From contig NZ_CP022464.2 in assembly GCF_002234575.2 (NCBI RefSeq), positions 3,119,944 through 3,151,943 on the forward strand: DNA of 32,000 nt. The letters are read 5' to 3'. Below, piece after piece: positions 1,709 to 16,202 of the stretch. Numbering within the stretch: position 1 is the stretch's first letter; the number at the start of each line of letters is the position of its first letter. This DNA comes from Enterocloster bolteae. GTDB taxonomy: Bacteria > Bacillota > Clostridia > Lachnospirales > Lachnospiraceae. The notes below the pieces were generated by a model, which was not told the DNA's origin, did no database searches, and saw nothing but the letters and a program-made list of their open reading frames with translations. The translations under genes were made by a program, and so were the position numbers.

Positions 1709-1996
1709 ATGCCCTATTATCCACGCCAGGATAAAAAGGGCGAAATCCCGTATACAATCCTTACACGCCCGGAAAAATTGGTTATGGACTATTGCCATAT
1801 CAATATTTACGAAGTCCAGGAAATGGAAATAGATATTTACCTTTTCTTCTTACGGGAAGCAATGATTTTTGAAAATTCACAGACCGAAGAGGGACGGAAA
1901 TATTTAAAAGATTGCTTCCGTATGGAGCAGACAAAACCGGACCGTGAGGGATTAAGAGAAAGATTTGGAAAGAAAGGGGGAAAATCAAGTGGCTAA
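1709..1996 (+). CDS. tail assembly chaperone gpT-like segment (possibly made as a -1 frameshift fusion to 1356-1706)
   Basis: The ORF is in the -1 frame relative to the preceding chaperone. No Shine-Dalgarno sequence precedes its ATG. The frame is already open from 1685 and overlaps the last codons of the upstream gene. Confidence 0.45.
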   Translation: MPYYPRQDKKGEIPYTILTRPEKLVMDYCHINIYEVQEMEIDIYLFFLREAMIFENSQTEEGRKYLKDCFRMEQTKPDREGLRERFGKKGGKSSG

Positions 1997-4982
1997 CAAC
2001 ATTAAGGGTATTACTATTGAGATTGGCGGAGATACAACCAAGTTGCAAAATGCCTTAAAGGGTGTAAACGGGGACCTCAAAAGTACCAAGAATGAGTTAA
2101 AAGAGGTTGAAAAGGGCTTGAAATTAGACCCCAAGAATACCGAACTTTTAGCACAGAAACAACAGTTGCTTACAAAGGCAGTAGGCGAAACCAAAGATAA
2201 ATTAGATGTATTAAAAACGGCAGAAGCCCAGGTGGAGCAGCAGTTTAAAAACGGCGAAGCATCCGAGGAGCAGTACCGGGCAATCAAACGTGAAGTAATC
2301 GCAACGGAAGCAGAACTTAAAAACCTGGAAGAGCAAGCAAAGGCGAGTAATTCAACGCTTGCAAAGGTGGGGGATGCTTTTGGAACGGTAGGGGATAAGG
2401 CAACCAAAGCCGGGGAAAAGATGATGCCCGTAACGGCCGGAATAACCGCATTAGGAGCAGCCGGGGTTGCTGCATCTATGGAATTAGATAACGGCTATGA
2501 CACCATTATTACCAAGACGGGAGCAACCGGGGAAGCCCTGGAAAGCCTTACGACAGTAGCGGACAATGTATTTTCAGATATGCCAACTACAATGGATGAT
2601 GTGGGCGTAGCGGTTGGAGAAGTAAATACAAGGTTCGGGGCAACCGGGACAGAGTTAGAAAATCTTTCAAAAGAATTTATTAAATTTGCAAACATCAACG
2701 GAACGGATTTAAACACGGCTATTGATAGCGTGGACAGTATTATGACAAAATTCGGCGTTGATGCTTCACAGACAAAAAATGTGTTGGGGCTTATGACAAA
2801 AGCGGGCCAGGACACGGGTATTTCAATGGAAACATTGGAAACCGCACTTACAACCAACGGTGCAAGCCTTAAAGAAATGGGGCTTGATTTAACATCATCC
2901 GTTAATTTGCTTGCACAAATGGAAGCAAGCGGCGTTGATGTTTCAACCGCACTTGCCGGAATGAAAAAAGCGGTTCAGAACGCAACGGCAGACGGCAAGA
3001 GTGCAGACGAAGCATTGACCGAAACAATAGATAGCATTAAAAACGCAAAGACAGAAACGGAAGCCTTAACCATTGCATCCGACCTTTTCGGAAAGAAAGG
3101 TGCGGCGGAAATGACCCAGGCAATCCGTGAGGGGCGCTTATCCGTAGACGATTTAAGCGGTGCTTTATCAGACTATGGGGATGTGGTAAGTGACACATTT
3201 GAAACCACATTAGACCCGTGGGATGATGCAGCCGTAGCAATGAACAATTTGAAACTTGCCGGGGCAGACCTGGGAAGTTCCATTTTAACCACATTGCAGC
3301 CAACAATTGATAAGGTTGTGAACAAGGTAAAAGAGTTTACAACATGGTTTAAAAACCTGGACGACAACACAAAACAGATGATTGTAAAAATCGGAATGAT
3401 TGTTGCGGCTATCGGCCCGGCTTTAATCATATTTGGGAAAATGTCAACGGGAATATCCGGGGTAATAAAAACCGTAACGGGATTAACAAGCAAAATAGGC
3501 GGAATGAGTGGTGTTTTATCAGCACTCACGGGACCGGTTGGAATAGTGATTGCTATTATAGCGGCACTTGCCGCCGGGTTCATTGCTTTATATAAAACGA
3601 ATGATGAATTTAAAGAGAAAGTGGACGGGACCATAGGAAAGGTAAAGGATGCCTTTTCGCAGATGTGGACAACCATACAACCGCTTTTGGAGAGCCTAAA
3701 GCAAGCGTTTATTAACCTCATGGCTGCATTAAAACCCGTATTTGAATTTGTTCTTACATACATAGCAAGTATTGTAAATGGGGTTATCAATGCAGCAGCA
3801 CCGATAATTGCAGCAATCCAAAATGTGATTGATTTTGTTACCAATATCATAAATGCCATTATAGCGTTATTACATGGAGATTTTGACGGTTTCTTTTCGT
3901 ATCTGCAAGGTGCGTTTAATAGTGCAATATCGTTTGTAAAAAACATCATCCAGGCGGTTATAAATTTCATAATCGGATTTTTAGAGGGGTTCGGCGTAAA
4001 TGTAAAAACATTATTTACCAATATTTGGAATAGCATTGTTGCCGTATTCCAGGGCGTGGGTCAGTGGTTCAGTGACCGATTTACGGAAGCATGGAACGCA
4101 ATAACCACAATTTTTTCTGCAATCGGTTCATGGTTCGCCGCCAGGTGGAACGACATAAAAACCGCCCTTGCGACCGTGGCAACGTGGTTTCTTACCATGT
4201 TTACAAATGCCTATACGAATGTAACAAACGTATTCGCTACAATCGGTTCATGGTTCGCCGCAAGGTGGAACGATATAAAAACCGCCCTTGCAGCAGTAGC
4301 CACATGGTTTTTAACTATGTTCACAAACGCATACACCAACGTAACAAATGTATTTGCTGCAATTGGTTCATGGTTTGGGGCAAGGTGGACGGAGATAAAA
4401 ACCGCCCTTGCATCCGTTCCAACATGGTTTAAAACACAGTTTGATAACGCATGGACGAACATAAAAAACGCATTTGCCAATGTAACTTCCTTTTTCTCTG
4501 ATTTATGGGAGAAAATCAAGGGTTGTTTCGTAAATGTCGGTACGGCAATTGGTAGTGCGGTAAGTGATGCTTTTAAATCGGCAATCAACAGTTGCCTATC
4601 AACCATAGAGGGCGTTGTAAATAAGTTTATCGGTATGATTAACGGGGTAATTGGAATTATCAATGAGATACCGGGCGTTTCACTTTCAAAAATTGATACG
4701 CTTTCACTTCCGAGACTTGCAAAGGGCGGTGTATTAAGAGAGGGTACGGCAATGGTAGCAGAAGCCGGGCCGGAACTTTTAAGCATGGTAAACGGAAAAG
4801 CGGTTGTAACACCGCTTACGGGTTCAGCCGTAAACACGGCAGCAGACAACCTAAAGGGTAATAATGGCGGTTTCCACCAGGAAATCAATATTACAAGCCC
4901 TAAAGCCCTATCCCCTTATGAAGTGGCAAGACAAACGAGAATACAGACCCGTGCAATGGCTATTGCAATGCAGAGGGGGTAA
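1989..4982 (+). CDS. tail tape measure protein
   Basis: 997 aa counted from the GTG at 1989, which is preceded by AAGGGGGA. The N-terminus VANNIKGITIEIGGDT and a coiled-coil region are TMP-like. There is a central hydrophobic/TM block, W/F-periodic repeats, and the canonical position after the chaperones. Confidence 0.9.
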   Translation: MANNIKGITIEIGGDTTKLQNALKGVNGDLKSTKNELKEVEKGLKLDPKNTELLAQKQQLLTKAVGETKDKLDVLKTAEAQVEQQFKNGEASEEQYRAIKREVIATEAELKNLEEQAKASNSTLAKVGDAFGTVGDKATKAGEKMMPVTAGITALGAAGVAASMELDNGYDTIITKTGATGEALESLTTVADNVFSDMPTTMDDVGVAVGEVNTRFGATGTELENLSKEFIKFANINGTDLNTAIDSVDSIMTKFGVDASQTKNVLGLMTKAGQDTGISMETLETALTTNGASLKEMGLDLTSSVNLLAQMEASGVDVSTALAGMKKAVQNATADGKSADEALTETIDSIKNAKTETEALTIASDLFGKKGAAEMTQAIREGRLSVDDLSGALSDYGDVVSDTFETTLDPWDDAAVAMNNLKLAGADLGSSILTTLQPTIDKVVNKVKEFTTWFKNLDDNTKQMIVKIGMIVAAIGPALIIFGKMSTGISGVIKTVTGLTSKIGGMSGVLSALTGPVGIVIAIIAALAAGFIALYKTNDEFKEKVDGTIGKVKDAFSQMWTTIQPLLESLKQAFINLMAALKPVFEFVLTYIASIVNGVINAAAPIIAAIQNVIDFVTNIINAIIALLHGDFDGFFSYLQGAFNSAISFVKNIIQAVINFIIGFLEGFGVNVKTLFTNIWNSIVAVFQGVGQWFSDRFTEAWNAITTIFSAIGSWFAARWNDIKTALATVATWFLTMFTNAYTNVTNVFATIGSWFAARWNDIKTALAAVATWFLTMFTNAYTNVTNVFAAIGSWFGARWTEIKTALASVPTWFKTQFDNAWTNIKNAFANVTSFFSDLWEKIKGCFVNVGTAIGSAVSDAFKSAINSCLSTIEGVVNKFIGMINGVIGIINEIPGVSLSKIDTLSLPRLAKGGVLREGTAMVAEAGPELLSMVNGKAVVTPLTGSAVNTAADNLKGNNGGFHQEINITSPKALSPYEVARQTRIQTRAMAIAMQRG
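4121..4480 (+). repeat. three tandem 120-bp (40-aa) repeats inside the tape measure gene
   Basis: AATCGGTTCATGG at 4121 and 4241, and AATTGGTTCATGG at 4361. The repeated peptide is IGSWFAARWNDIKTALAxVATWFLTMFTNAYTNVTNVFA, and the third copy is more diverged. Confidence 0.85.
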
Positions 4983-4985
4983 ATT

Positions 4986-5939
4986 ATGGCAGATATTACA
5001 ATTACTTGTACAAATGATAAAAATGTTTCTATTACCTTTAGGTGGGATTGGGATAAAAGCCCATTCCACCTATTGGATGTAGAGGGAATTTATGGTTACA
5101 GTTGCAAGGTTACAACATCAGAAAATACTACCACGGACGGCAGCACATACCAGGGAAGCACGGCAGAGGAAAGAAACATTGTAATTACAACAGAGATTGA
5201 CGGGGATTACAAAAAGAACCGGGAATTATTATACAGAGTATTCCAAAAGGGCAGAACCGGAACGCTTGAATATAGCGAGGACGGGGATGTAAAAACTATC
5301 AATTACAAAGTAGAAAATGTATTGCCGGGAGCAATAACGGGCGTTGTGAGGGATTATACAATTAGTCTTAAATGTCCAGACCCATACTTTAAGGACCTGT
5401 CAGATGTGGAAGTGGTAATGGCAAGTTGGGTATCAGATTGGTACTTTGAAAACGGGTTTGATATTAACGGCGTGGAATTTGGACACCGGGAAGCCGAGTT
5501 GGTAAAAGAAATTGAGAATGACAACGGAGCGGACAATATCGGAATTACCGCAATATTCAAAGCAGACGGCATTGTAAAAAATCCGGCCATTTACCATTCA
5601 GAGAGTGGGAAATATACAAAGGTTGGTTATACCGGAAATGATTTTGAATTACAAAGCGGTCAATATGTGGTTATTTTCACACATACCGGAAAGAAAAATA
5701 TGTATCTTTTGGACGGTGTGAGCCAGGCGGAAATTGAGGAACACAAGGACCGTTACGGAATGATTGATTGGGACACGGTTGTTTCCATATACGGGACAAT
5801 CATAAACCAATATTATGACGAGGACGGGGAGTATATACAGTTGCAGGACGGCACAAACACCATTACATACAACGCAGAAAGCGGCATTAACTATTTATCC
5901 GTGTCAGTATATTACCGCATTTCATATTTGGGGGTGTAA
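4986..5939 (+). CDS. distal tail protein (Dit-like phage tail component)
   Basis: 317-aa ORF starting 4 nt after the TMP stop, which is the canonical Dit position. The assignment rests on synteny. Confidence 0.6.
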   Translation: MADITITCTNDKNVSITFRWDWDKSPFHLLDVEGIYGYSCKVTTSENTTTDGSTYQGSTAEERNIVITTEIDGDYKKNRELLYRVFQKGRTGTLEYSEDGDVKTINYKVENVLPGAITGVVRDYTISLKCPDPYFKDLSDVEVVMASWVSDWYFENGFDINGVEFGHREAELVKEIENDNGADNIGITAIFKADGIVKNPAIYHSESGKYTKVGYTGNDFELQSGQYVVIFTHTGKKNMYLLDGVSQAEIEEHKDRYGMIDWDTVVSIYGTIINQYYDEDGEYIQLQDGTNTITYNAESGINYLSVSVYYRISYLGV

Positions 5940-8071: not shown

Positions 8072-8566
8072 ATGGTAGGATTTCCAAAAGTAATTAAGAC
8101 AAAGGCGGATTTAGTCAACACTTACAAACTTGTAAAGAAAGGCAGATTGAAGAAAAAAGATTGGTTGGCAGCAGTTGAGAAGTTGGAAAATCAGAATTTC
8201 ATCTTTTGCCCTATCCTGGAGAAAACCGAGGATAGAAAGGGCGTTACACTTATGTTTGTAAACGAGGTTACAGAGGGGGACAAGGTAAAAGCCGGGAACG
8301 CGACCGCAACCGTTAAGACCGTGGAGCATATCGAGGTTGAAAAGGCAGCAGAAGCAGACCAGGAAGCGGCAGCAGTAGAGGGAACGGCGGCAGCAGATGC
8401 CGAAACAACCACAAATAACAATCAGACCAAGCACACAATTTTGACACTTTCAAAGGCTATTGCGGCGGATGCGGCTACAATCGGTATTCCGGCAGAAGTT
8501 ACATTTTATGACCGCCTGGGAATTACAGAAGAGGAAGTGGAGCAGATGAAAGGAGAGTTAGCATAA
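8072..8566 (+). CDS. hypothetical phage protein, translationally coupled to the DGR target gene
   Basis: 164-aa ORF with an RBS (AGAGAGGA). It has a central Ala/Glu/Thr-rich low-complexity linker. Its stop overlaps the next start (TAATG at 8564-8568). Confidence 0.4.
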   Translation: MVGFPKVIKTKADLVNTYKLVKKGRLKKKDWLAAVEKLENQNFIFCPILEKTEDRKGVTLMFVNEVTEGDKVKAGNATATVKTVEHIEVEKAAEADQEAAAVEGTAAADAETTTNNNQTKHTILTLSKAIAADAATIGIPAEVTFYDRLGITEEEVEQMKGELA

Positions 8567-9660
8567 TGGGAAGATTATTTGTTTATGACGAGAATATGAC
8601 GGACGAGAGGGCGAAAATCACAGTTGCTAAAATGGCCGCCGTATCGGACATTGTAGCGAGTGAAAAGGCGTTTATACAGTATTCCGCAGCCGGACAATTA
8701 ACCGTGCTTGCCGGGGCAGTTATTGCGGTAGGGGATGCCATTTTTCAGACCGAGGAAACAACGCTTTCAGCTGCCAACCTGGACGGTGCAAGCAGCTTTG
8801 CACACGGCAAAGATTATTACATTTACTTATGCAACAATGGCAAGGACAGTTCAAACGAGGTTTATTTAATCTCTGAAAATTCCACATTCCCGGACGGCGT
8901 GGAATGGGACGATACAAACACCCGTAAAATTGGCGGTTTCCACTATGGCTTTGTTAGAAATGTGGATGAATACGGCAGAGAAGTAAATACAAGTGGAAGT
9001 GTGCGTGGTAGCGGTTGGGAAAGTAACGTGCATGAGGACATTGCCCCTAACTCCGTATGGACCGCCTTACACCGTCCGAAGTGCGACCCGTCCGGTATGG
9101 CATACCTGGGGAATGGTTTGTGGGCTGATATTTACCTTGCATCAGATGATGGGGCGAACGGCTTACAATCTGTATATAATGCAACGCCTATTACGGGTAC
9201 AGAGGGTTTAAATTGGTATATTGCCAATGAAAAGGCTGCCCGTGTCGGAAAGCGTTTACCGGACCTTGCAGAGTGGTTAATTGCAGCAGAGGGAAGCCCC
9301 CAGGGATTAGACGGCAGCAATACAAACGGTTGGACCGCAACAACCAACACTGCAAGAACCGCCGTTGGAAAAATCAAAAATGCAATTTCTGTAAAAAACA
9401 TTATGGACATTGCCGGGAACGTGTGGGAATGGATTAACGAGTTGTGTTTAGACCCAACCGCTGCATCCTGGAATTGGTACAATGTTATGTCCGGCTACGG
9501 TCAAATTTATATGCCGTCACAAACAGCCTTGCACGCCCTCGTTGGCGGCGGCCATTGGGGCAGCGGCGTGCATTGCGGTAGCCGTGCCGTCGGTTGCAGC
9601 GATTACCCGTGGTACGTGACCGCGAGCATTGGTGTGCGGTGCGTGTGTGACAGTCTGTAA
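8566..9660 (+). CDS. DGR target protein: tail-module receptor-binding candidate with a C-terminal FGE-sulfatase/C-type-lectin-like fold carrying the VR
   Basis: The motif IAGNVWEWINE is the typical GNVWEW signature of FGE-sulfatase/CLec domains. The last 42 codons are the VR, which matches the TR downstream. The gene lies between the fibre-like genes and avd. Confidence 0.9.
   Translation: MGRLFVYDENMTDERAKITVAKMAAVSDIVASEKAFIQYSAAGQLTVLAGAVIAVGDAIFQTEETTLSAANLDGASSFAHGKDYYIYLCNNGKDSSNEVYLISENSTFPDGVEWDDTNTRKIGGFHYGFVRNVDEYGREVNTSGSVRGSGWESNVHEDIAPNSVWTALHRPKCDPSGMAYLGNGLWADIYLASDDGANGLQSVYNATPITGTEGLNWYIANEKAARVGKRLPDLAEWLIAAEGSPQGLDGSNTNGWTATTNTARTAVGKIKNAISVKNIMDIAGNVWEWINELCLDPTAASWNWYNVMSGYGQIYMPSQTALHALVGGGHWGSGVHCGSRAVGCSDYPWYVTASIGVRCVCDSL
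9525..9651 (+). repeat. DGR variable region (VR)
   Basis: 127 nt align without gaps to 10179-10305. There are 13 mismatches, and every one is at a TR adenine (10 A->G, 2 A->C, 1 A->T). Confidence 0.92.
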
Positions 9661-9667
9661 TCTGCCA

Positions 9668-9687
9668 GGGTGGGCGAAAGCCCACCC
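9668..9687 (+). promoter_or_regulatory. GC-rich hairpin (8-bp stem, GAAA loop) downstream of VR; candidate DGR target-recognition element
   Basis: GGGTGGGC-GAAA-GCCCACCC forms a perfect stem. It starts 16 nt after the VR/TR homology ends. No T-run follows, and no equivalent hairpin follows TR. Confidence 0.7.
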
Positions 9688-9719
9688 CATAGAAAAATAT
9701 ATAAACCGAGGATAAAAAC

Positions 9720-10109
9720 ATGGCAGAGAACAAGAAAAGCAATCAAGCGGATGCGTATATGGAGAGCATGAAAGCGTATCAAAAGACCTATGATTTTCTT
9801 TTATACCTTTATCCCATATTGTCACAGTTTCCGAAATTTGAGAAATTCGCATTGCAGAGCCAAATTAAAACGGCGGTTTTTGAAATGCTTAAATCAGTAA
9901 TCAGATTTAGAAAGACCGGGACAAAGAGCCATATATATAACGCAGATGTAGAGTTGCAGTTTATCAAAACCCTCATACGGCTTTCCTACGATTTGGAATA
10001 TCCGGCAATGAGCAAACACAGATACGAAGTATTGAGTAAGAAAATGACAGAATTAGGATGTATCATTGGCGGAATAATCGAAGCCGTAAAGAATGGAAAT
10101 TGGAAATAA
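9720..10109 (+). CDS. avd: accessory variability determinant (Avd-like four-helix-bundle protein)
   Basis: 129-aa basic helical protein with RBS GAGGA 7 nt upstream. The motif YQKTYDFLLYLYPILSQFPKFEKFALQSQI is typical of the four-helix-bundle (23S rRNA IVS-like)/bAvd family. It sits between the target gene and TR. Confidence 0.8.
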   Translation: MAENKKSNQADAYMESMKAYQKTYDFLLYLYPILSQFPKFEKFALQSQIKTAVFEMLKSVIRFRKTGTKSHIYNADVELQFIKTLIRLSYDLEYPAMSKHRYEVLSKKMTELGCIIGGIIEAVKNGNWK

Positions 10110-10178: not shown

Positions 10179-10305
10179 AGCCTTGCACGCCCTCATTGGC
10201 GGCGGCAATTGGAACAACGGCGTGCATTGCGGTAGCCGTGCCGTCAATTGCAACAATTACCCGTGGAACGTGAACACGAACATTGGTGTGCGGTGCGTGT
10301 GTGAC
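10179..10305 (+). repeat. DGR template repeat (TR)
   Basis: This is the invariant partner of VR. It contains 27 adenines, including nine AAY codons in the VR reading frame. The 3' 21 nt (10283-10303) contain no adenine. Confidence 0.92.
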
Positions 10306-10466
10306 TTTACAATTTTATAGACATAGAAGCCCAAGCGGCCACTAGCAAAGATTTACATTTTTTAAGTAAGTCAGACGGTTTGCCCGTTCCGGTGTGATAC
10401 CGGACAAACTAACAAAGCAAACCACCTTTTAGTAAAATAGAATATTTGAAAATTGGTAGGGATTAA

Positions 10467-11507
10467 ATGAAAACAGTAAAGGGACTACATGAGAAAATGG
10501 GGACCTTTGAAAATGCCAATACTTCATTCCACCAGGCGGCCAAGTGCAAGCGGTACACGGATGAGGTATTGGCTTTTTCTATGGTTAAGGAAGAGGAACT
10601 TTTAAGAGCAACCGAGGAAATACAGAATTTAACATATAGGCAAGGGGAATATAAGATATTTAAGGTGTTTGAGCCAAAAGAACGGCTTATTATGGCGTTG
10701 CCGTTCTATGATAGAGTGGTGCAACACATGATTTGTAACGCTATTCAACCCGTATTTGAGAACGGATTTTATTACCATTCTTACGCTTGCCGGACCGGTA
10801 AGGGGATGCACGCCGCAAGTGATACATTGTATCAATGGATGTATGAAACAGAGGTTAAACAAGGGTTAAGGATGTATGCCTTTAAAGGGGACATATCAAA
10901 GTATTTTGCATCTATACCACATGACAAATTAAAGGATGAAAACCGCCGCTATATAGGGGATAAGAAAGCCCTTATGTTAATGGACGATATTATAGACCAC
11001 AACGGCATATTGCCGGACGGCGTGGGAATACCCGTTGGAAACCTCACAAGTCAGTTATTTGCGAATGTGTACGGCAATAAGTTAGATAAATTTTGCAAGC
11101 ACGTTTTACATATTCCGTATTTTGTGCGGTACATGGATGATTTTATTATCCTATCGGATGATTTGGAGCAGTTGAAAGAATGGGTTAAGAGAATAGAAGA
11201 ATTTTTGGAAAATGAAATGCTTTTGCATATTAACCCTAAAAGCACAATCCTATACGCTGGGAATGGCATAGATTTTTGCGGATATATCCACTATGCAGAC
11301 CACAAGAAAGTAAGAAAATCATCTATCAGAAAGTTAAAGCAAGATGTAAAGGCGTATGAGTTGGGCGAATTGCCGCCGGAAGAATTTAACCGGAAGTACG
11401 AAAGCAGAAAGGGACATTTAGGACACGCCGACACATACCACATTGCAAAGGCGGTTGAATACGAATTGTTGTTCTATGAATGGGAACGCCTGGAAGCAGC
11501 GGCGTAA
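10467..11507 (+). CDS. DGR reverse transcriptase
   Basis: The motif VRYMDDFIILS is the YxDD catalytic motif. IPVGNLTSQLFANVY carries the xGNxxSQ signature characteristic of DGR RTs. The protein is 346 aa and lies directly downstream of TR. Confidence 0.9.
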   Translation: MKTVKGLHEKMGTFENANTSFHQAAKCKRYTDEVLAFSMVKEEELLRATEEIQNLTYRQGEYKIFKVFEPKERLIMALPFYDRVVQHMICNAIQPVFENGFYYHSYACRTGKGMHAASDTLYQWMYETEVKQGLRMYAFKGDISKYFASIPHDKLKDENRRYIGDKKALMLMDDIIDHNGILPDGVGIPVGNLTSQLFANVYGNKLDKFCKHVLHIPYFVRYMDDFIILSDDLEQLKEWVKRIEEFLENEMLLHINPKSTILYAGNGIDFCGYIHYADHKKVRKSSIRKLKQDVKAYELGELPPEEFNRKYESRKGHLGHADTYHIAKAVEYELLFYEWERLEAAA

Positions 11508-12009: not shown

Positions 12010-12954
12010 ATGGCAACAAAAGACCAGGTAAACGCCTTTATTGCGAAATTGGCAGCAATTGCAAGAAAAGAATATTTAACCCGTGATAAATGGGTTTTAC
12101 CGTCCGTATGTATCGCACAGGCAGCATTAGAAACCGGGTGGGGAACATCCGGGCTTATGACAAAAGCCAATGCGTTTTTTGGCATCAAGGCCGGCAGCAG
12201 TTGGAAAGGCAAGGTTTACAGTAGCAAAACAAACGAGTGCTATGACGGCAAGACCTACACGCAGATTACCGCCGCTTTCCGTGCTTATGATAGCCTGGAA
12301 GAGAGTGTGGCGGATTATTACAATCTGATTTGCGGAAGTTCCCGTTATGCCGGAGCGGTAAACAACGGAAACGCCGAAAGTGCCATTACCGCAATCAAAA
12401 ACGGCGGATATGCAACAAGTCCTACATACATCAAGAATGTAATGAACATCATCAATTCTTACAACCTTACACAGTATGACACATGGGACGGAGAGAACCA
12501 GGGACCGGCAAACAAGGAAACCCACGGTTACAAGGTGGGGGACAAGGTAAGAGTGATTGATAACATCACATACAACGGGGTGCGTTTCGCAACCTATTAT
12601 GATGAATATGATGTTATCCAGGTAAACGGGGACCGTGTTGTTATCGGTATCGGTAACACCGTGACGGCAGCAGTAAACGCCGCCAACATTGCAAAGGATG
12701 AAGAGATTGCAGAAGCCCCGGCGGATGCGGAAACACCAACCGACATTCCGACCCAGGAAGAAACAGAGAACGCCCACGGTTTCAAGGTAGGGCAGAAAGT
12801 AAAGGTTATCAATGCTTATGATTACTACGGTAATATGTTTAAGTGTTGGTACAGTAAATATGATGTTATCGAGGTTAAGAATGACAGAATTGTTATTGGT
12901 ATCGGTAGCACCGTAACGGCAGCAGTAAACGCCGCCAATTTAGCAGCAGCATAA
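12010..12954 (+). CDS. endolysin: N-terminal glucosaminidase (mannosyl-glycoprotein endo-beta-N-acetylglucosaminidase) domain plus two C-terminal SH3-like wall-binding repeats
   Basis: The motif AQAALETGWGTS is typical of the glucosaminidase/FlgJ-C family. Two ~57-aa repeats (HGYKVGDKVRVID... and HGFKVGQKVKVIN...) are encoded at nt 12523-12693 and 12775-12945. Confidence 0.85.
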   Translation: MATKDQVNAFIAKLAAIARKEYLTRDKWVLPSVCIAQAALETGWGTSGLMTKANAFFGIKAGSSWKGKVYSSKTNECYDGKTYTQITAAFRAYDSLEESVADYYNLICGSSRYAGAVNNGNAESAITAIKNGGYATSPTYIKNVMNIINSYNLTQYDTWDGENQGPANKETHGYKVGDKVRVIDNITYNGVRFATYYDEYDVIQVNGDRVVIGIGNTVTAAVNAANIAKDEEIAEAPADAETPTDIPTQEETENAHGFKVGQKVKVINAYDYYGNMFKCWYSKYDVIEVKNDRIVIGIGSTVTAAVNAANLAAA

Positions 12955-13017: not shown

Positions 13018-13050
13018 AAAAGCACACCTTAAAAAGTGTGCTTTTTTCTT
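13018..13050 (+). terminator. rho-independent terminator after the lysis cassette
   Basis: Stem AGCACAC (13021-27) pairs with GTGTGCT (13036-42). An 8-nt loop separates them and a T-run follows. Confidence 0.7.
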
Positions 13051-13064
13051 TATTTTAAAAGATT

Positions 13065-13142
13065 TTTAAAATAGTACGGAATATGTGTTGACATAGTACG
13101 GAATATGTAATATAATAAAGACAGTTAAGAGAGGAACACAAA
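13065..13142 (+). promoter_or_regulatory. consensus sigma-70-type promoter P1 with two direct operator-like repeats (copy 1 of a 78-bp repeat)
   Basis: TTGACA (13088-93), a 17-bp spacer, then TATAAT (13111-16). ATAGTACGGAATATGT occurs at 13071-86 and 13093-108. Confidence 0.7.
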
Positions 13143-13160
13143 GAAAGTGAGGAAAAGAAA

Positions 13161-13322
13161 ATGTGGGAAGTAGTAAAAACAGTAAAGGGATATGATATAA
13201 CAAGAATGATTGGAAGCCGTGGTGCTTACCATGTATCAGTAAGAGAGGGAAAAGGCTTTAGAGAGTTCCACACATTCAAAACCATAAAGGCAGCGGTTGA
13301 GTTTATCGAAACTGCACTATAA
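13161..13322 (+). CDS. hypothetical small protein (53 aa)
   Basis: The ATG is preceded by GTGAGGAAAAG. This is the first ORF after P1. It is below the ORF-track length cutoff, and I translated it by hand (MWEVVKTVKGYDITRM...). Confidence 0.4.
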   Translation: MWEVVKTVKGYDITRMIGSRGAYHVSVREGKGFREFHTFKTIKAAVEFIETAL

Positions 13323-13575: not shown

Positions 13576-13907
13576 CCGCCCGGCAACTAAAACGGCCACA
13601 CCGTGAACGGGTGCGAGTGTCCCAAGCCACTATAAACCGTTGAGGGGTTGCAACAATAGGCGTTGCGGTACTGTCTGACAAGTTTTGACCCACGTTTTAA
13701 TGTGAAACGGGGAAGCAATGAGGAATACACCGGGCAAGGGTGCATTGCTTATATACACAATCGTTTAGACCAATGCCCGGAAACCCAAAACGCCTATATG
13801 ATGCAACTATATATTGAAACCCGTTGTTTCTGTGATTTTATCAATGGTAAATACACGCACTTTTAAGCCTGGCACATTCCGCCGGGCTTATTGCACATAA
13901 AAATAAA

Positions 13908-13985
13908 TTTAAAATAGTACGGAATATGTATTGACATAGTACGGAATATGTTATATAATAAAGACAGTTAAGGGAGATACACAAA
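13908..13985 (+). promoter_or_regulatory. promoter P2 (copy 2 of the 78-bp repeat)
   Basis: TTGACA (13931-36), a 17-bp spacer, then TATAAT (13954-59). ATAGTACGGAATATGT occurs at 13914-29 and 13936-51. About 5 mismatches to copy 1 at a fixed offset of 843 bp. Confidence 0.7.
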
Positions 13986-14023
13986 CTTAATGAGTAATGG
14001 GCAAGCATAGAAAGGAGAACTTT

Positions 14024-14164
14024 ATGGACGAGGATATGAACGTAGGCGAGTTACTTAAAGAAACGGCAGAAGAAAATCAGACCAGGAAAATACTTGAAAT
14101 CTTAAACGAGTGCAAGGACCTGGCAGAAGCCAAAGAAAGAGTAAAAGCCCTACTTAATAAGTAA
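14024..14164 (+). CDS. hypothetical small protein (46 aa)
   Basis: ATG after AAAGGAGAA. This is the first ORF after P2, translated by hand (MDEDMNVGELLKETAEEN...). Confidence 0.35.
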   Translation: MDEDMNVGELLKETAEENQTRKILEILNECKDLAEAKERVKALLNK

Positions 14165-15086: not shown

Positions 15087-16202
15087 TTGTCCCTATTGCC
15101 GTATCAAGGGGGTTATTTTTATGGGTAGAAAATACAGACAGTTAAGCCAAAATGATAGAATATCAATGGAAACACTACTTAACAAAGGTCATTCCGTACA
15201 AGAGGTTGCGGATTATTTGCACGTTCACAGAAGCACCATTTACAGAGAAATGAAACGGGGCGAGTATGTACATAGAAATTCAGACTATACGGAAGAGGTG
15301 CGTTATAGTAGTGATAAGGGGCAGCAGACCCATGATTGGAACGCCCAGGGCAAAGGCAGAAACATTAAAATAGGCAATGATATTAAATTGGCGGAATACA
15401 TAGAAAATAAGATTGTGGAAAATAAATATAGCCCGGAAGCGGCGTTGGCAGCAGTAGCCACAAGCGGAATAGAATTTAGTACCACTATAAGCGTAAGAAC
15501 CCTATACCGCTATATTGATAACGGCATATTCCTTAAACTTACCAACAAGCATTTACCCGTTAAGGGCAAGAAGAAAAAGAAAAATAAGAAAGTCCAGGTG
15601 CAGAAGAGGGCAGCAGCCGGGGAGAGCATAGAGAACCGCCCGGATGAAGTGGCAACCCGTGAAACATTCGGACATTGGGAAATGGACACAGTAAAGGGCA
15701 AACAAGGCGTTACAAAATCATGTATGCTTGTATTAACAGAGAGAAAGACCAGGGACGAGATTATATTTAAACTGAAAGACCAAAAGGCGGAAAGCGTGGT
15801 GGATGCCATGGACCGTTTAGAAAGAAAATGGGGAGATATGTTTTCTAAAGTGTTTAGAAGCATCACGGTAGATAATGGCGTGGAGTTTTCGGATTGTAAG
15901 GGCATGGAGCGTTCAGCGTTGACACCAGGGGAGAAACGCACATATCTATTCTATTGCCACCCATACAGTAGTTGGGAGAGAGGGACCAACGAAAACACCA
16001 ACAAACTAATCCGCCGCCATATCCCTAAAGGGGAAGATTTTGACGAAAAGCAAGATAGGGACATTGAGTTTATAGAAAATTGGATAAACACATACCCACG
16101 GGGCATTTTCGGTTTCAAAACATCAGAAGAATTATTTAAAGAAGAGTTGGAGAAAATCACGGCATAATATTTTTTAAAAACTTGTCGCAAAACTATTGAC
16201 AA
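15087..16202 (+). mobile_element. IS30-family insertion sequence (ends tentative)
   Basis: It contains a single IS30-type transposase gene. The candidate imperfect inverted repeats are TTGTCCCTATTGCCGTATCAAG (15087-15108) and the reverse complement of 16181-16202 (TTGTCAATAGTTTTGCGACAAG), matching at 13/22 positions ungapped. The boundaries are uncertain. Confidence 0.5.
15121..16167 (+). CDS. IS30 family transposase
   Basis: N-terminal HTH (RISMETLLNKGHSVQEVADYLHVHRSTIYREMKRG). DDE-type core with HWEMDTV, ITVDNGVEF and PYSSWERGTNENTNKLIRR. Confidence 0.9.
   Translation: MGRKYRQLSQNDRISMETLLNKGHSVQEVADYLHVHRSTIYREMKRGEYVHRNSDYTEEVRYSSDKGQQTHDWNAQGKGRNIKIGNDIKLAEYIENKIVENKYSPEAALAAVATSGIEFSTTISVRTLYRYIDNGIFLKLTNKHLPVKGKKKKKNKKVQVQKRAAAGESIENRPDEVATRETFGHWEMDTVKGKQGVTKSCMLVLTERKTRDEIIFKLKDQKAESVVDAMDRLERKWGDMFSKVFRSITVDNGVEFSDCKGMERSALTPGEKRTYLFYCHPYSSWERGTNENTNKLIRRHIPKGEDFDEKQDRDIEFIENWINTYPRGIFGFKTSEELFKEELEKITA

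Follow-up and report, generated by a model that had tools for sequence, protein, structure and literature searches.

A GC-rich GAAA hairpin behind the VR of a prophage DGR in Enterocloster bolteae, very probably a target-site hairpin of the BPP-1 type

Introduction

The closest described counterpart of the element studied here is the target-site hairpin of the BPP-1 DGR, which consists of 8-bp inverted repeats enclosing a GAAA loop just past the VR (PMC3240598). This hairpin is needed for efficient retrohoming: the structure of the stem matters and its sequence does not, while both the size and the sequence of the loop matter (Guo 2011, PMC3240598). Tropism switching drops more than 1000-fold when the stem is disrupted and recovers with a compensatory stem, and activity is lost when the loop is changed to CTTT or made 2 nt larger (PMC3240598). 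The element is cleaved by T7 endonuclease I in supercoiled DNA, acts in cis on the recipient DNA with avd-TR-brt given in trans, and suffices, together with the IMH, for the targeting of a heterologous gene (PMC3240598). In phage-related DGRs more generally, GC stems of 7-10 bp with 4-nt GRNA loops are located 4-34 bp from the VR (PMC3240598).

Inverted repeats of this kind were found in only 34% of 372 DGRs, and no such repeat follows the IMH*, which distinguishes the donor from the recipient (Wu 2018, PMC5758913). The directionality of BPP-1 is also set by the difference between IMH and IMH*, the hairpin raising efficiency without being strictly essential. In a 2026 reconstitution in E. coli, deletion of the stem-loop impaired retrohoming severely, yet not completely, and targets co-oriented with replication were favoured; its authors proposed that, owing to the stem-loop, the strand with which the cDNA pairs stays open for longer. 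The steps proposed for the hairpin in the literature are nicking, recognition by RT-Avd and keeping the strand open. DGR target hairpins are annotated automatically, by rule, in MyDGR.

Results

The DGR cassette and its prophage setting

The DNA analysed is a stretch of 32,000 nucleotides from Enterocloster bolteae (hereafter the window). The features of its DGR cassette are given below.

8566-9660, + strand: DGR target gene, encoding a Mtd-like receptor-binding protein of 364 aa with a C-terminal C-type-lectin/FGE-sulfatase fold (Pfam mtd_2nd, 7e-30; FGE-sulfatase, 4e-11)
9525-9651, + strand: VR, a 127-nt repeat 90% identical to TR
9627-9651, + strand: invariant, IMH-like 3' block common to VR and TR, with a 21-nt A-free run at 9629-9649
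9652-9667, + strand: VR-specific spacer of 16 nt, unlike the TR flank in the alignment, with the TAA stop codon of the target at 9658-9660
9668-9687, + strand: very probable target-site hairpin, with an 8-bp stem (seven G-C pairs and one T-A pair) and a GAAA loop
9708-9712, + strand: avd ribosome-binding site GAGGA, read from the sequence and not occluded by the hairpin
9720-10109, + strand: avd (accessory variability determinant), 129 aa (Pfam bAvd, 3e-25; NCBIfam DivGenRetAVD, 93.8 bits against a cut-off of 80)
10179-10305, + strand: TR, with 27 adenines
10306-10354, + strand: TR-specific 3' flank without a GC hairpin (DNA fold -2.2 kcal/mol, z = -1.1)
10467-11507, + strand: DGR reverse transcriptase (RT), 346 aa (Pfam RVT_1, 1e-19; best solved relative 8ub7_A)

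The alignment of VR and TR is gapless, and identity stops at 9651 in the former and 10305 in the latter. Given that all 13 mismatches, the last of which is at 9626, fall on adenines of the downstream copy, this copy is the TR and the upstream one the VR. The invariant block at 9627-9651 is analogous to the invariant GC-rich (GC)14 part of the BPP-1 IMH. The RT matches 8ub7_A (328 aa), the bRT chain of BPP-1, over its full length (2.8e-51). A DGR-type RT, Avd, an A-specific TR/VR pair and a C-type-lectin target with a C-terminal VR are all present, and the locus is a complete BPP-1-type DGR made up of a Mtd-like target, VR, Avd, TR and a bRT-like RT.

Upstream of the target gene are genes for a tape-measure protein, a distal-tail protein and a Gp37-like tail protein, i.e., a siphovirus tail module, and downstream of the DGR are a holin and a glucosaminidase lysin. 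These are followed by an IS30-like transposase (HTH_38 + rve, 15121-16167), located between the prophage end and the host genes, and, from about 16.7 kb (16709 onward), by bacterial genes for an EAL/GGDEF response regulator, a polysaccharide deacetylase, a radical-SAM protein, RNase G and TrkA. The succession of tail and lysis genes and then ordinary bacterial genes indicates that a siphovirus-type prophage lies in a Clostridia chromosome, with its right end within the window.

Some further repeats were observed in the prophage part. Three tandem 120-nt repeats, 73-80% identical, are found at 4102-4477 within the tape-measure-like ORF of 1005 aa (1965-4982), and an 89-nt direct repeat (83% identical; 12605-12693 and 12857-12945) in the C-terminal part of the lysin gene probably encodes duplicated cell-wall-binding modules. 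Just past the lysin gene and the strong terminator that follows it at 13018-13045 are two 87%-identical copies (13057-13154 and 13900-13997) of a perfect sigma-70 promoter (TTGACA, 17 nt, TATAAT), each preceding a small ORF (13161-13322 and 13997-14164). The 16-nt word ATAGTACGGAATATGT is present twice per promoter copy as a direct repeat, with one unit immediately 5' of the -35 box and the other occupying the spacer, and these repeats look like paired operator sites.

The hairpin in the window

The hairpin, GGGTGGGC-GAAA-GCCCACCC, has its 5' arm at 9668-9675, its loop at 9676-9679 and its 3' arm at 9680-9687, and the octamer d(GCGAAAGC) forms its core at 9674-9681. It starts 16 nt past the end of VR/TR identity and 7 nt past the stop codon, in the intergenic space between the end of the target (9660) and the start of avd (9720), where the only overlapping ORFs are spurious antisense ones. 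In the DNA fold of the 49 nt 3' of the VR, it is both the minimum free energy and the centroid structure (-10.7 kcal/mol, z = -4.4, with none of 200 shuffles folding as well), and in the RNA fold of 81 nt it is again the centroid (-18.6 kcal/mol, z = -2.5). Hence, a preliminary description of this DNA, which had reported an 8-bp GC stem with a GAAA loop 16 nt past the VR/TR homology and clear of any CDS, agrees with the sequence and the alignment, spurious ORFs aside, and the stem-loop that it had proposed to fold as DNA and RNA is predicted with both parameter sets.

No other perfect stem of at least 8 bp with a 4-nt loop exists in the 32 kb. Dinucleotide shuffles yield an expectation of 0.68 perfect 8-bp hairpins with a 4-nt loop per 32 kb, and of 0.025 when at least seven of the pairs are G-C. 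Searching the whole window against Rfam at gathering thresholds produced no match. In terms of the published sequence rules for DGR target hairpins, the window hairpin has a GC-rich stem within the range of 7-10 bp, a GRNA loop on the sense strand and a distance from the VR within 4-34 bp.

The position of a GC-rich stem-loop 7 nt past a stop codon would also suit an intrinsic (Rho-independent) terminator of the target gene, and Guo 2011 speculated that DGR targeting may have evolved from terminator-like stem-loops (PMC3240598). We regard this explanation as highly improbable, given the GC stem-loop is not followed by a T-run: its tail is CATAGAAAAATAT, with no T-run on either strand, and a terminator scan of both strands of the window does not call it. 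The 3' flank is likewise not T-rich in most relatives despite the conserved stem, the essential avd-TR-RT lies directly downstream with no promoter-like site found between the target stop codon and avd, and terminator evidence after the IMH was found in only a minority of 372 DGRs (Wu 2018, PMC5758913). A true terminator with a T-run is found elsewhere, at 13018-13045 after the lysin gene. The preliminary description had rated the element a poor intrinsic terminator and had held that terminator behaviour would speak against its role in retrohoming; the former is upheld by the tail and the scan, by which the hairpin does not look like a terminator.

Distribution among related loci

Relatives were collected from two sources: 82 viral loci (IMG/VR) from scans with the RT and the target protein, and 80 loci from species-representative genomes (GTDB) from a scan with an alignment of the target protein. 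No match to the cassette was obtained at the DNA level in the GenBank phage collection. The closest genome copy is that of Clostridiaceae bacterium Marseille-Q4145, with 97% target identity, and other genome relatives are found within the Lachnospiraceae, in genera such as Acetatifactor, Petralouisia, Roseburia and Coprococcus.

In the 100 nt after the target stop codons, a GC stem capped by C-GAAA-G is present in nearly all relatives down to approximately 50% identity. The stem sequences differ among relatives while the cap stays C-GAAA-G, and the following stem classes (5' arm/3' arm) were distinguished.

GGGTGGGC/GCCCACCC (window type)
GGGCGGGC/GCCCGCCC
GGGGTGGGC/GCCC-A-ACCCC
GGGGCGCCC/GGGC-A-GCCCC
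GGCGGCGGC/GCCG-A-CCGCC
GGGGCCGGC/GCCG-A-GCCCC
CGGCGGGC/GCCC-A-GCCG

Other hairpins with GRNA loops are found at more distant targets, namely GCTCGAC-GATA-GTCGAGC, CACCCCCTGC-GATA-GCAGGGGGTG and GGCGTGTC-GAAA-GACACGCC. Targets of Treponema, Nitrospirota, Desulfobacterota and Fusobacteria (39-48% identity) mostly lack such a hairpin according to a simple scan.

The 102 loci with a hairpin comprise 36 distinct hairpins, whose loop is GAAA in 29 cases, GGAA in six and AAAA in one. The core is GCGAAAGC, GCGGAAGC or CCGAAAGG in all but two of them (34/36). A single bulged purine is located on the 3' arm in 22 of the 36, being A in 21 and G in locus L116, after the fourth or fifth pair from the loop and across five unrelated stem sequences (e.g., L037 5104-5136, L058 5112-5144, L061 5116-5148 and L105 4639-4671). 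The hairpins of the window and of BPP-1 have no bulge. In the tentative reading considered in the Discussion, this recurrence might reflect a shape to which a protein or the RT-Avd-RNA complex responds.

Two loci have irregular cassettes. In an Acetatifactor MAG (L085, ~4593-4700), a hairpin with a GGAA loop is kept, the avd start codon is ATA and no TR is found within 3.5 kb; this may be a decaying DGR that still retains its target hairpin. In IMGVR_UViG_7000000188_000062 (L045, ~3330-3700), the target ends in an AAC-rich, TR-like sequence that continues directly into the TR flank and the RT gene, and neither avd nor the hairpin is present; this reflects either an assembly collapse of VR and TR or a real deletion via recombination between the repeats.

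TCTG words were observed between the VR end and the hairpin (window 9652-9667; GTCTGTAATCTG). They are also seen after the target stop codon (L142, L150, L153, L159 and L161) in distant Treponema, Desulfurellaceae and Eubacteriales targets without a GAAA hairpin, and may be a conserved part of the IMH.

Covariation of the stem

Thirteen relatives with bulged stems, none of the window type, served to build a covariance model, R1. Given that MAFFT did not place the bulge gap when applied to 22 hairpins, the model was built from the bulged relatives and the remaining sequences were aligned by it. When R1 was applied to the window with filters off, one significant match was obtained, at 9662-9694 on the + strand (30.7 bits, E = 1e-5), the next match scoring 12.2 bits and the same site read on the - strand 8.4 bits. 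Among the 80 genome-derived loci, 55 presented one match each, in every case on the + strand immediately past the target stop codon; weak matches off that position were seen in L148 (19.0 bits) and L159 (16.4 bits). Among 61 viral loci, 47 matches were found at the same position as in the genome loci, and most viral loci without a match stop at or inside the target gene. R1 also recovers the experimentally defined BPP-1 hairpin, at 20 bits.

In the R1-fitted alignment of 26 distinct rows, 91.6% of cells are paired, compared to 72.7% in shuffles, and the covariation score is 0.364, compared to 0.087; neither value was reached in any of 500 shuffles. Of the nine modelled pairs, eight show compensatory changes on both sides. 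The closing pair is C-G in every row, and one-sided changes of the G-U type are absent from all 227 pair cells. Sliding the 3' partners by 1-3 columns lowers pairing to 21-48%. These pair counts lean towards the structure, since the alignment was fitted to it, and the rows are related to one another; moreover, the fit imposes the bulged register on the window sequence, for which the perfect 8-bp register is clearly the better one. The argument is carried by the independent stem classes listed above. Conservation with covarying bases, which the preliminary description had proposed as a check, is thus found in relatives down to approximately 50% target identity, contrary to the lack of conservation that it had said would speak against it.

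The free variation of the stem also bears on whether the palindrome is a double-stranded protein site (for an operator-binding protein or a recombinase) or owed to chance. A perfect, intergenic inverted repeat upstream of avd is what an operator might look like, but the stem sequence is free to change as long as pairing is kept, which is the opposite of what is expected of a sequence-specific site. In addition, conservation is highest in the asymmetric loop, and each locus has one copy only, with no second site. As for chance, its expectation is that of approximately 0.025 per window given above. Both possibilities are therefore considered extremely improbable.

Asymmetry between VR and TR

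The preliminary description had noted nothing comparable 3' of the TR, and this holds beyond the window. R1 yielded no match 3' of the TR in the window, the genome loci or the viral loci, and the 49 nt 3' of the TR fold as DNA to only -2.2 kcal/mol (z = -1.1). In the 22 loci with both ends located, the 60 nt after the VR fold to a mean of -11.8 kcal/mol, versus -4.3 kcal/mol after the TR, with the VR side lower in all 22. It had also been proposed that this asymmetry explains the direction of transfer from TR to VR. The consistent asymmetry and the published distinction of donor from recipient favour this proposal; yet, as direction in BPP-1 also depends on IMH versus IMH*, it stands only as part of the explanation.

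The TR flank has a structure of its own, a small stem formed by 10324-10326/10342-10344 and 10329-10331/10337-10339 (TAG..GCC / GGC..CTA), followed by GCAAAG at 10345-10350. This stem, approximately 19-45 nt past the TR, covaries in relatives (e.g., CAG/CTG in L099), in which the word GCAAG is conserved, and it is probably the start or a part of the DGR spacer RNA that recruits RT-Avd. A likeness between the 3' arm of the hairpin (AAGCCCA) and a motif after the TR (GAAGCCC) was considered and dismissed as a coincidence, given it is not kept in relatives with other stems.

A TR identical to that of the window is present in sixteen loci, accompanied by ten different VRs. Compared with this TR, 102 of the 107 differences in the ten VRs fall on TR adenines, with variation at 22 of the 27. 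The occurrence of ten A-varied VRs beside one identical TR indicates that targets with this hairpin do receive mutagenised cDNA in nature.

DNA or RNA as the functional form

The nearest-neighbour DNA energies of the two strands of the window hairpin, -10.7 and -10.4 kcal/mol, do not separate them, presumably because these parameters do not include the special stability of the GAAA loop. Consequently, the strand asymmetry rests on published melting data of such loops rather than on folding. As DNA mini-hairpins, GCGAAAGC melts at 76.5 C, GCGGAAGC at 71 C, CCGAAAGG at 65 C and GCGATAGC at 71 C, against 33 C for the pyrimidine loop GCTTTTGC and 39 C for r(GCGAAAGC) (PMC13037366). The complement of the sense-strand core would hence make a poor mini-hairpin, and G-T intermediates are absent in the nine modelled pairs. 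Together, the high-Tm cores in 34 of 36 distinct hairpins and the missing G-T intermediates point to a DNA structure on the sense strand, the one complementary to the cDNA.

The same hairpin might instead act in RNA, either as a GNRA stem-loop at the 3' end of the target mRNA, with a stabilising or processing role, or as a modulator of read-through into avd-TR-RT. The RNA fold is also stable (with the centroid and z-score given above), the loop is conserved on the transcribed sense strand only and a GNRA-type loop would be equally expected of an RNA; with no promoter-like site between the target stop codon and avd, read-through past the hairpin is plausible. Nevertheless, we consider an RNA role improbable. 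The BPP-1 hairpin is cis-acting on the recipient DNA with avd-TR-brt in trans, still works when moved behind a heterologous gene and is a substrate of T7 endonuclease I in supercoiled DNA. Here, the core fits the optimum for DNA (76.5 C) and not that for RNA (39 C), one-sided substitutions of the G-U type amount to 0 of 227 pair cells, and the avd ribosome-binding site is not sequestered. The data thus support a sense-strand DNA hairpin as the functional form.

Discussion

Proposed function

We conclude that the window hairpin is very probably the target-site hairpin/cruciform (SL) of a BPP-1-type DGR. By analogy with BPP-1, it most likely marks the VR as the recipient and raises the efficiency of retrohoming; both its folding as DNA in vivo and its promotion of retrohoming are inferred from the BPP-1 experiments.

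The proposed mechanism would be as follows. RT-Avd would copy the TR-containing RNA into cDNA, with errors at adenines, and this cDNA would be complementary to the sense strand of the VR. The inverted repeat just 3' of the VR would fold, on the sense strand, into a very stable DNA hairpin with core d(GCGAAAGC) whenever the duplex is opened, be it by negative supercoiling, by transcription or by replication with the sense strand as lagging-strand template. Once folded, it would label the VR, and not the TR, as the recipient, and would make incorporation of the cDNA beside the invariant, A-free 3' block more efficient. Regarding replication, all genes in the window are on the + strand and the third-codon GC skew of the host genes is +0.13, which suggests that in the prophage state the target is probably co-oriented with replication and its sense strand is the lagging-strand template.

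Within this explanation, the comparative data might fit a strand-specific ssDNA landmark better than a symmetric cruciform, a possibility we hold only tentatively and think rather unlikely. It draws on the high-Tm cores of the sense strand, whose complement would fold poorly, on the lack of G-T intermediates in the nine modelled pairs, on the bulged purine of 22 of the 36 distinct hairpins and on a duplication in locus L053. Were this so, the lagging-strand template would carry the hairpin as an ssDNA element that is recognised and possibly also cleaved.

The duplication in IMGVR_UViG_3300045988_107758 (L053, ~5090-5200) is a tandem one of approximately 66 nt, extending from the 3' end of the VR across the spacer and the 5' half of the hairpin. 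The junction is inside the loop (GGGCGA|CGCAC), and the second copy is a different A-mutagenised VR variant. This could be an assembly artefact or the footprint of an aberrant cDNA integration at a nick in the loop.

Significance

The hairpin is a known DGR cis-element, described since 2011 and annotated automatically, and introduces no new principle. The recurrent bulged A, the duplication within the loop in L053 and the conserved stem after the TR may be new details. For the prophage, the hairpin confirms that its DGR is complete and probably active. Furthermore, the 36 natural variants of the stem under its C(GAAA)G cap, many of them with a bulged A, could help in designing synthetic DGR targets for Gram-positive or gut hosts.

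Comparison with known systems

Group IIC introns offer a parallel at their target sites, which are stem-loops of intrinsic terminators recognised as ssDNA: a retroelement related to the DGR RT also recognises a GC-rich DNA stem by its structure and not its sequence. Their loop sequence is unimportant and a T-run is present, whereas the hairpin studied here lacks a T-run and is most strongly conserved in its loop.

The d(GCGAAAGC) mini-hairpin described by Hirao and co-workers (review PMC13037366) is present in the window as the exact octamer at 9674-9681, and the core variants of the relatives, GCGGAAGC, CCGAAAGG and GCGATAGC, are other mini-hairpins of high Tm from the same review. In contrast with the reviewed contexts, which are replication and transcription origins, the mini-hairpin here caps an 8-bp stem in the target of a retroelement.

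Compared with the hairpins of other phage-related DGRs in Guo 2011 (Fig. 5: E. rectale, Desulfotomaculum, VHML and others), the window hairpin shows no difference in kind and lies within each of the published ranges. The bulged A on the 3' arm of many Lachnospiraceae relatives is not mentioned in the text of that study.

Finally, the parallel with BPP-1 drawn in the preliminary description, i.e., a GC hairpin with a 4-nt loop 3' of the VR required for efficient retrohoming, is confirmed by Guo 2011 and by the BPP-1 record itself. In that record (AY029185, cassette at 1756-4583), the hairpin is GCGGGGCC-GAAA-GGCCCCGC, starting from the last base of the mtd stop codon. The two loci differ in some respects. 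The stems, GCGGGGCC in BPP-1 and GGGTGGGC here, are unrelated, and the cores are CCGAAAGG and GCGAAAGC, respectively; the hairpin is separated from the end of TR/VR identity by 20 nt in BPP-1 and by 16 nt here; the flanks of IMH and IMH* differ at 5 of 21 positions in BPP-1, while here the flanks diverge almost completely right past 9651/10305; and the host is Bordetella in one case and a Gram-positive gut anaerobe in the other. Despite these differences, both loci have an 8-bp GC-rich stem closed by a C-G pair under a GAAA loop on the sense strand, both have it just past the stop codon of a Mtd-type target, before avd and absent after the TR, and both present the same gene order, target-VR-avd-TR-RT.
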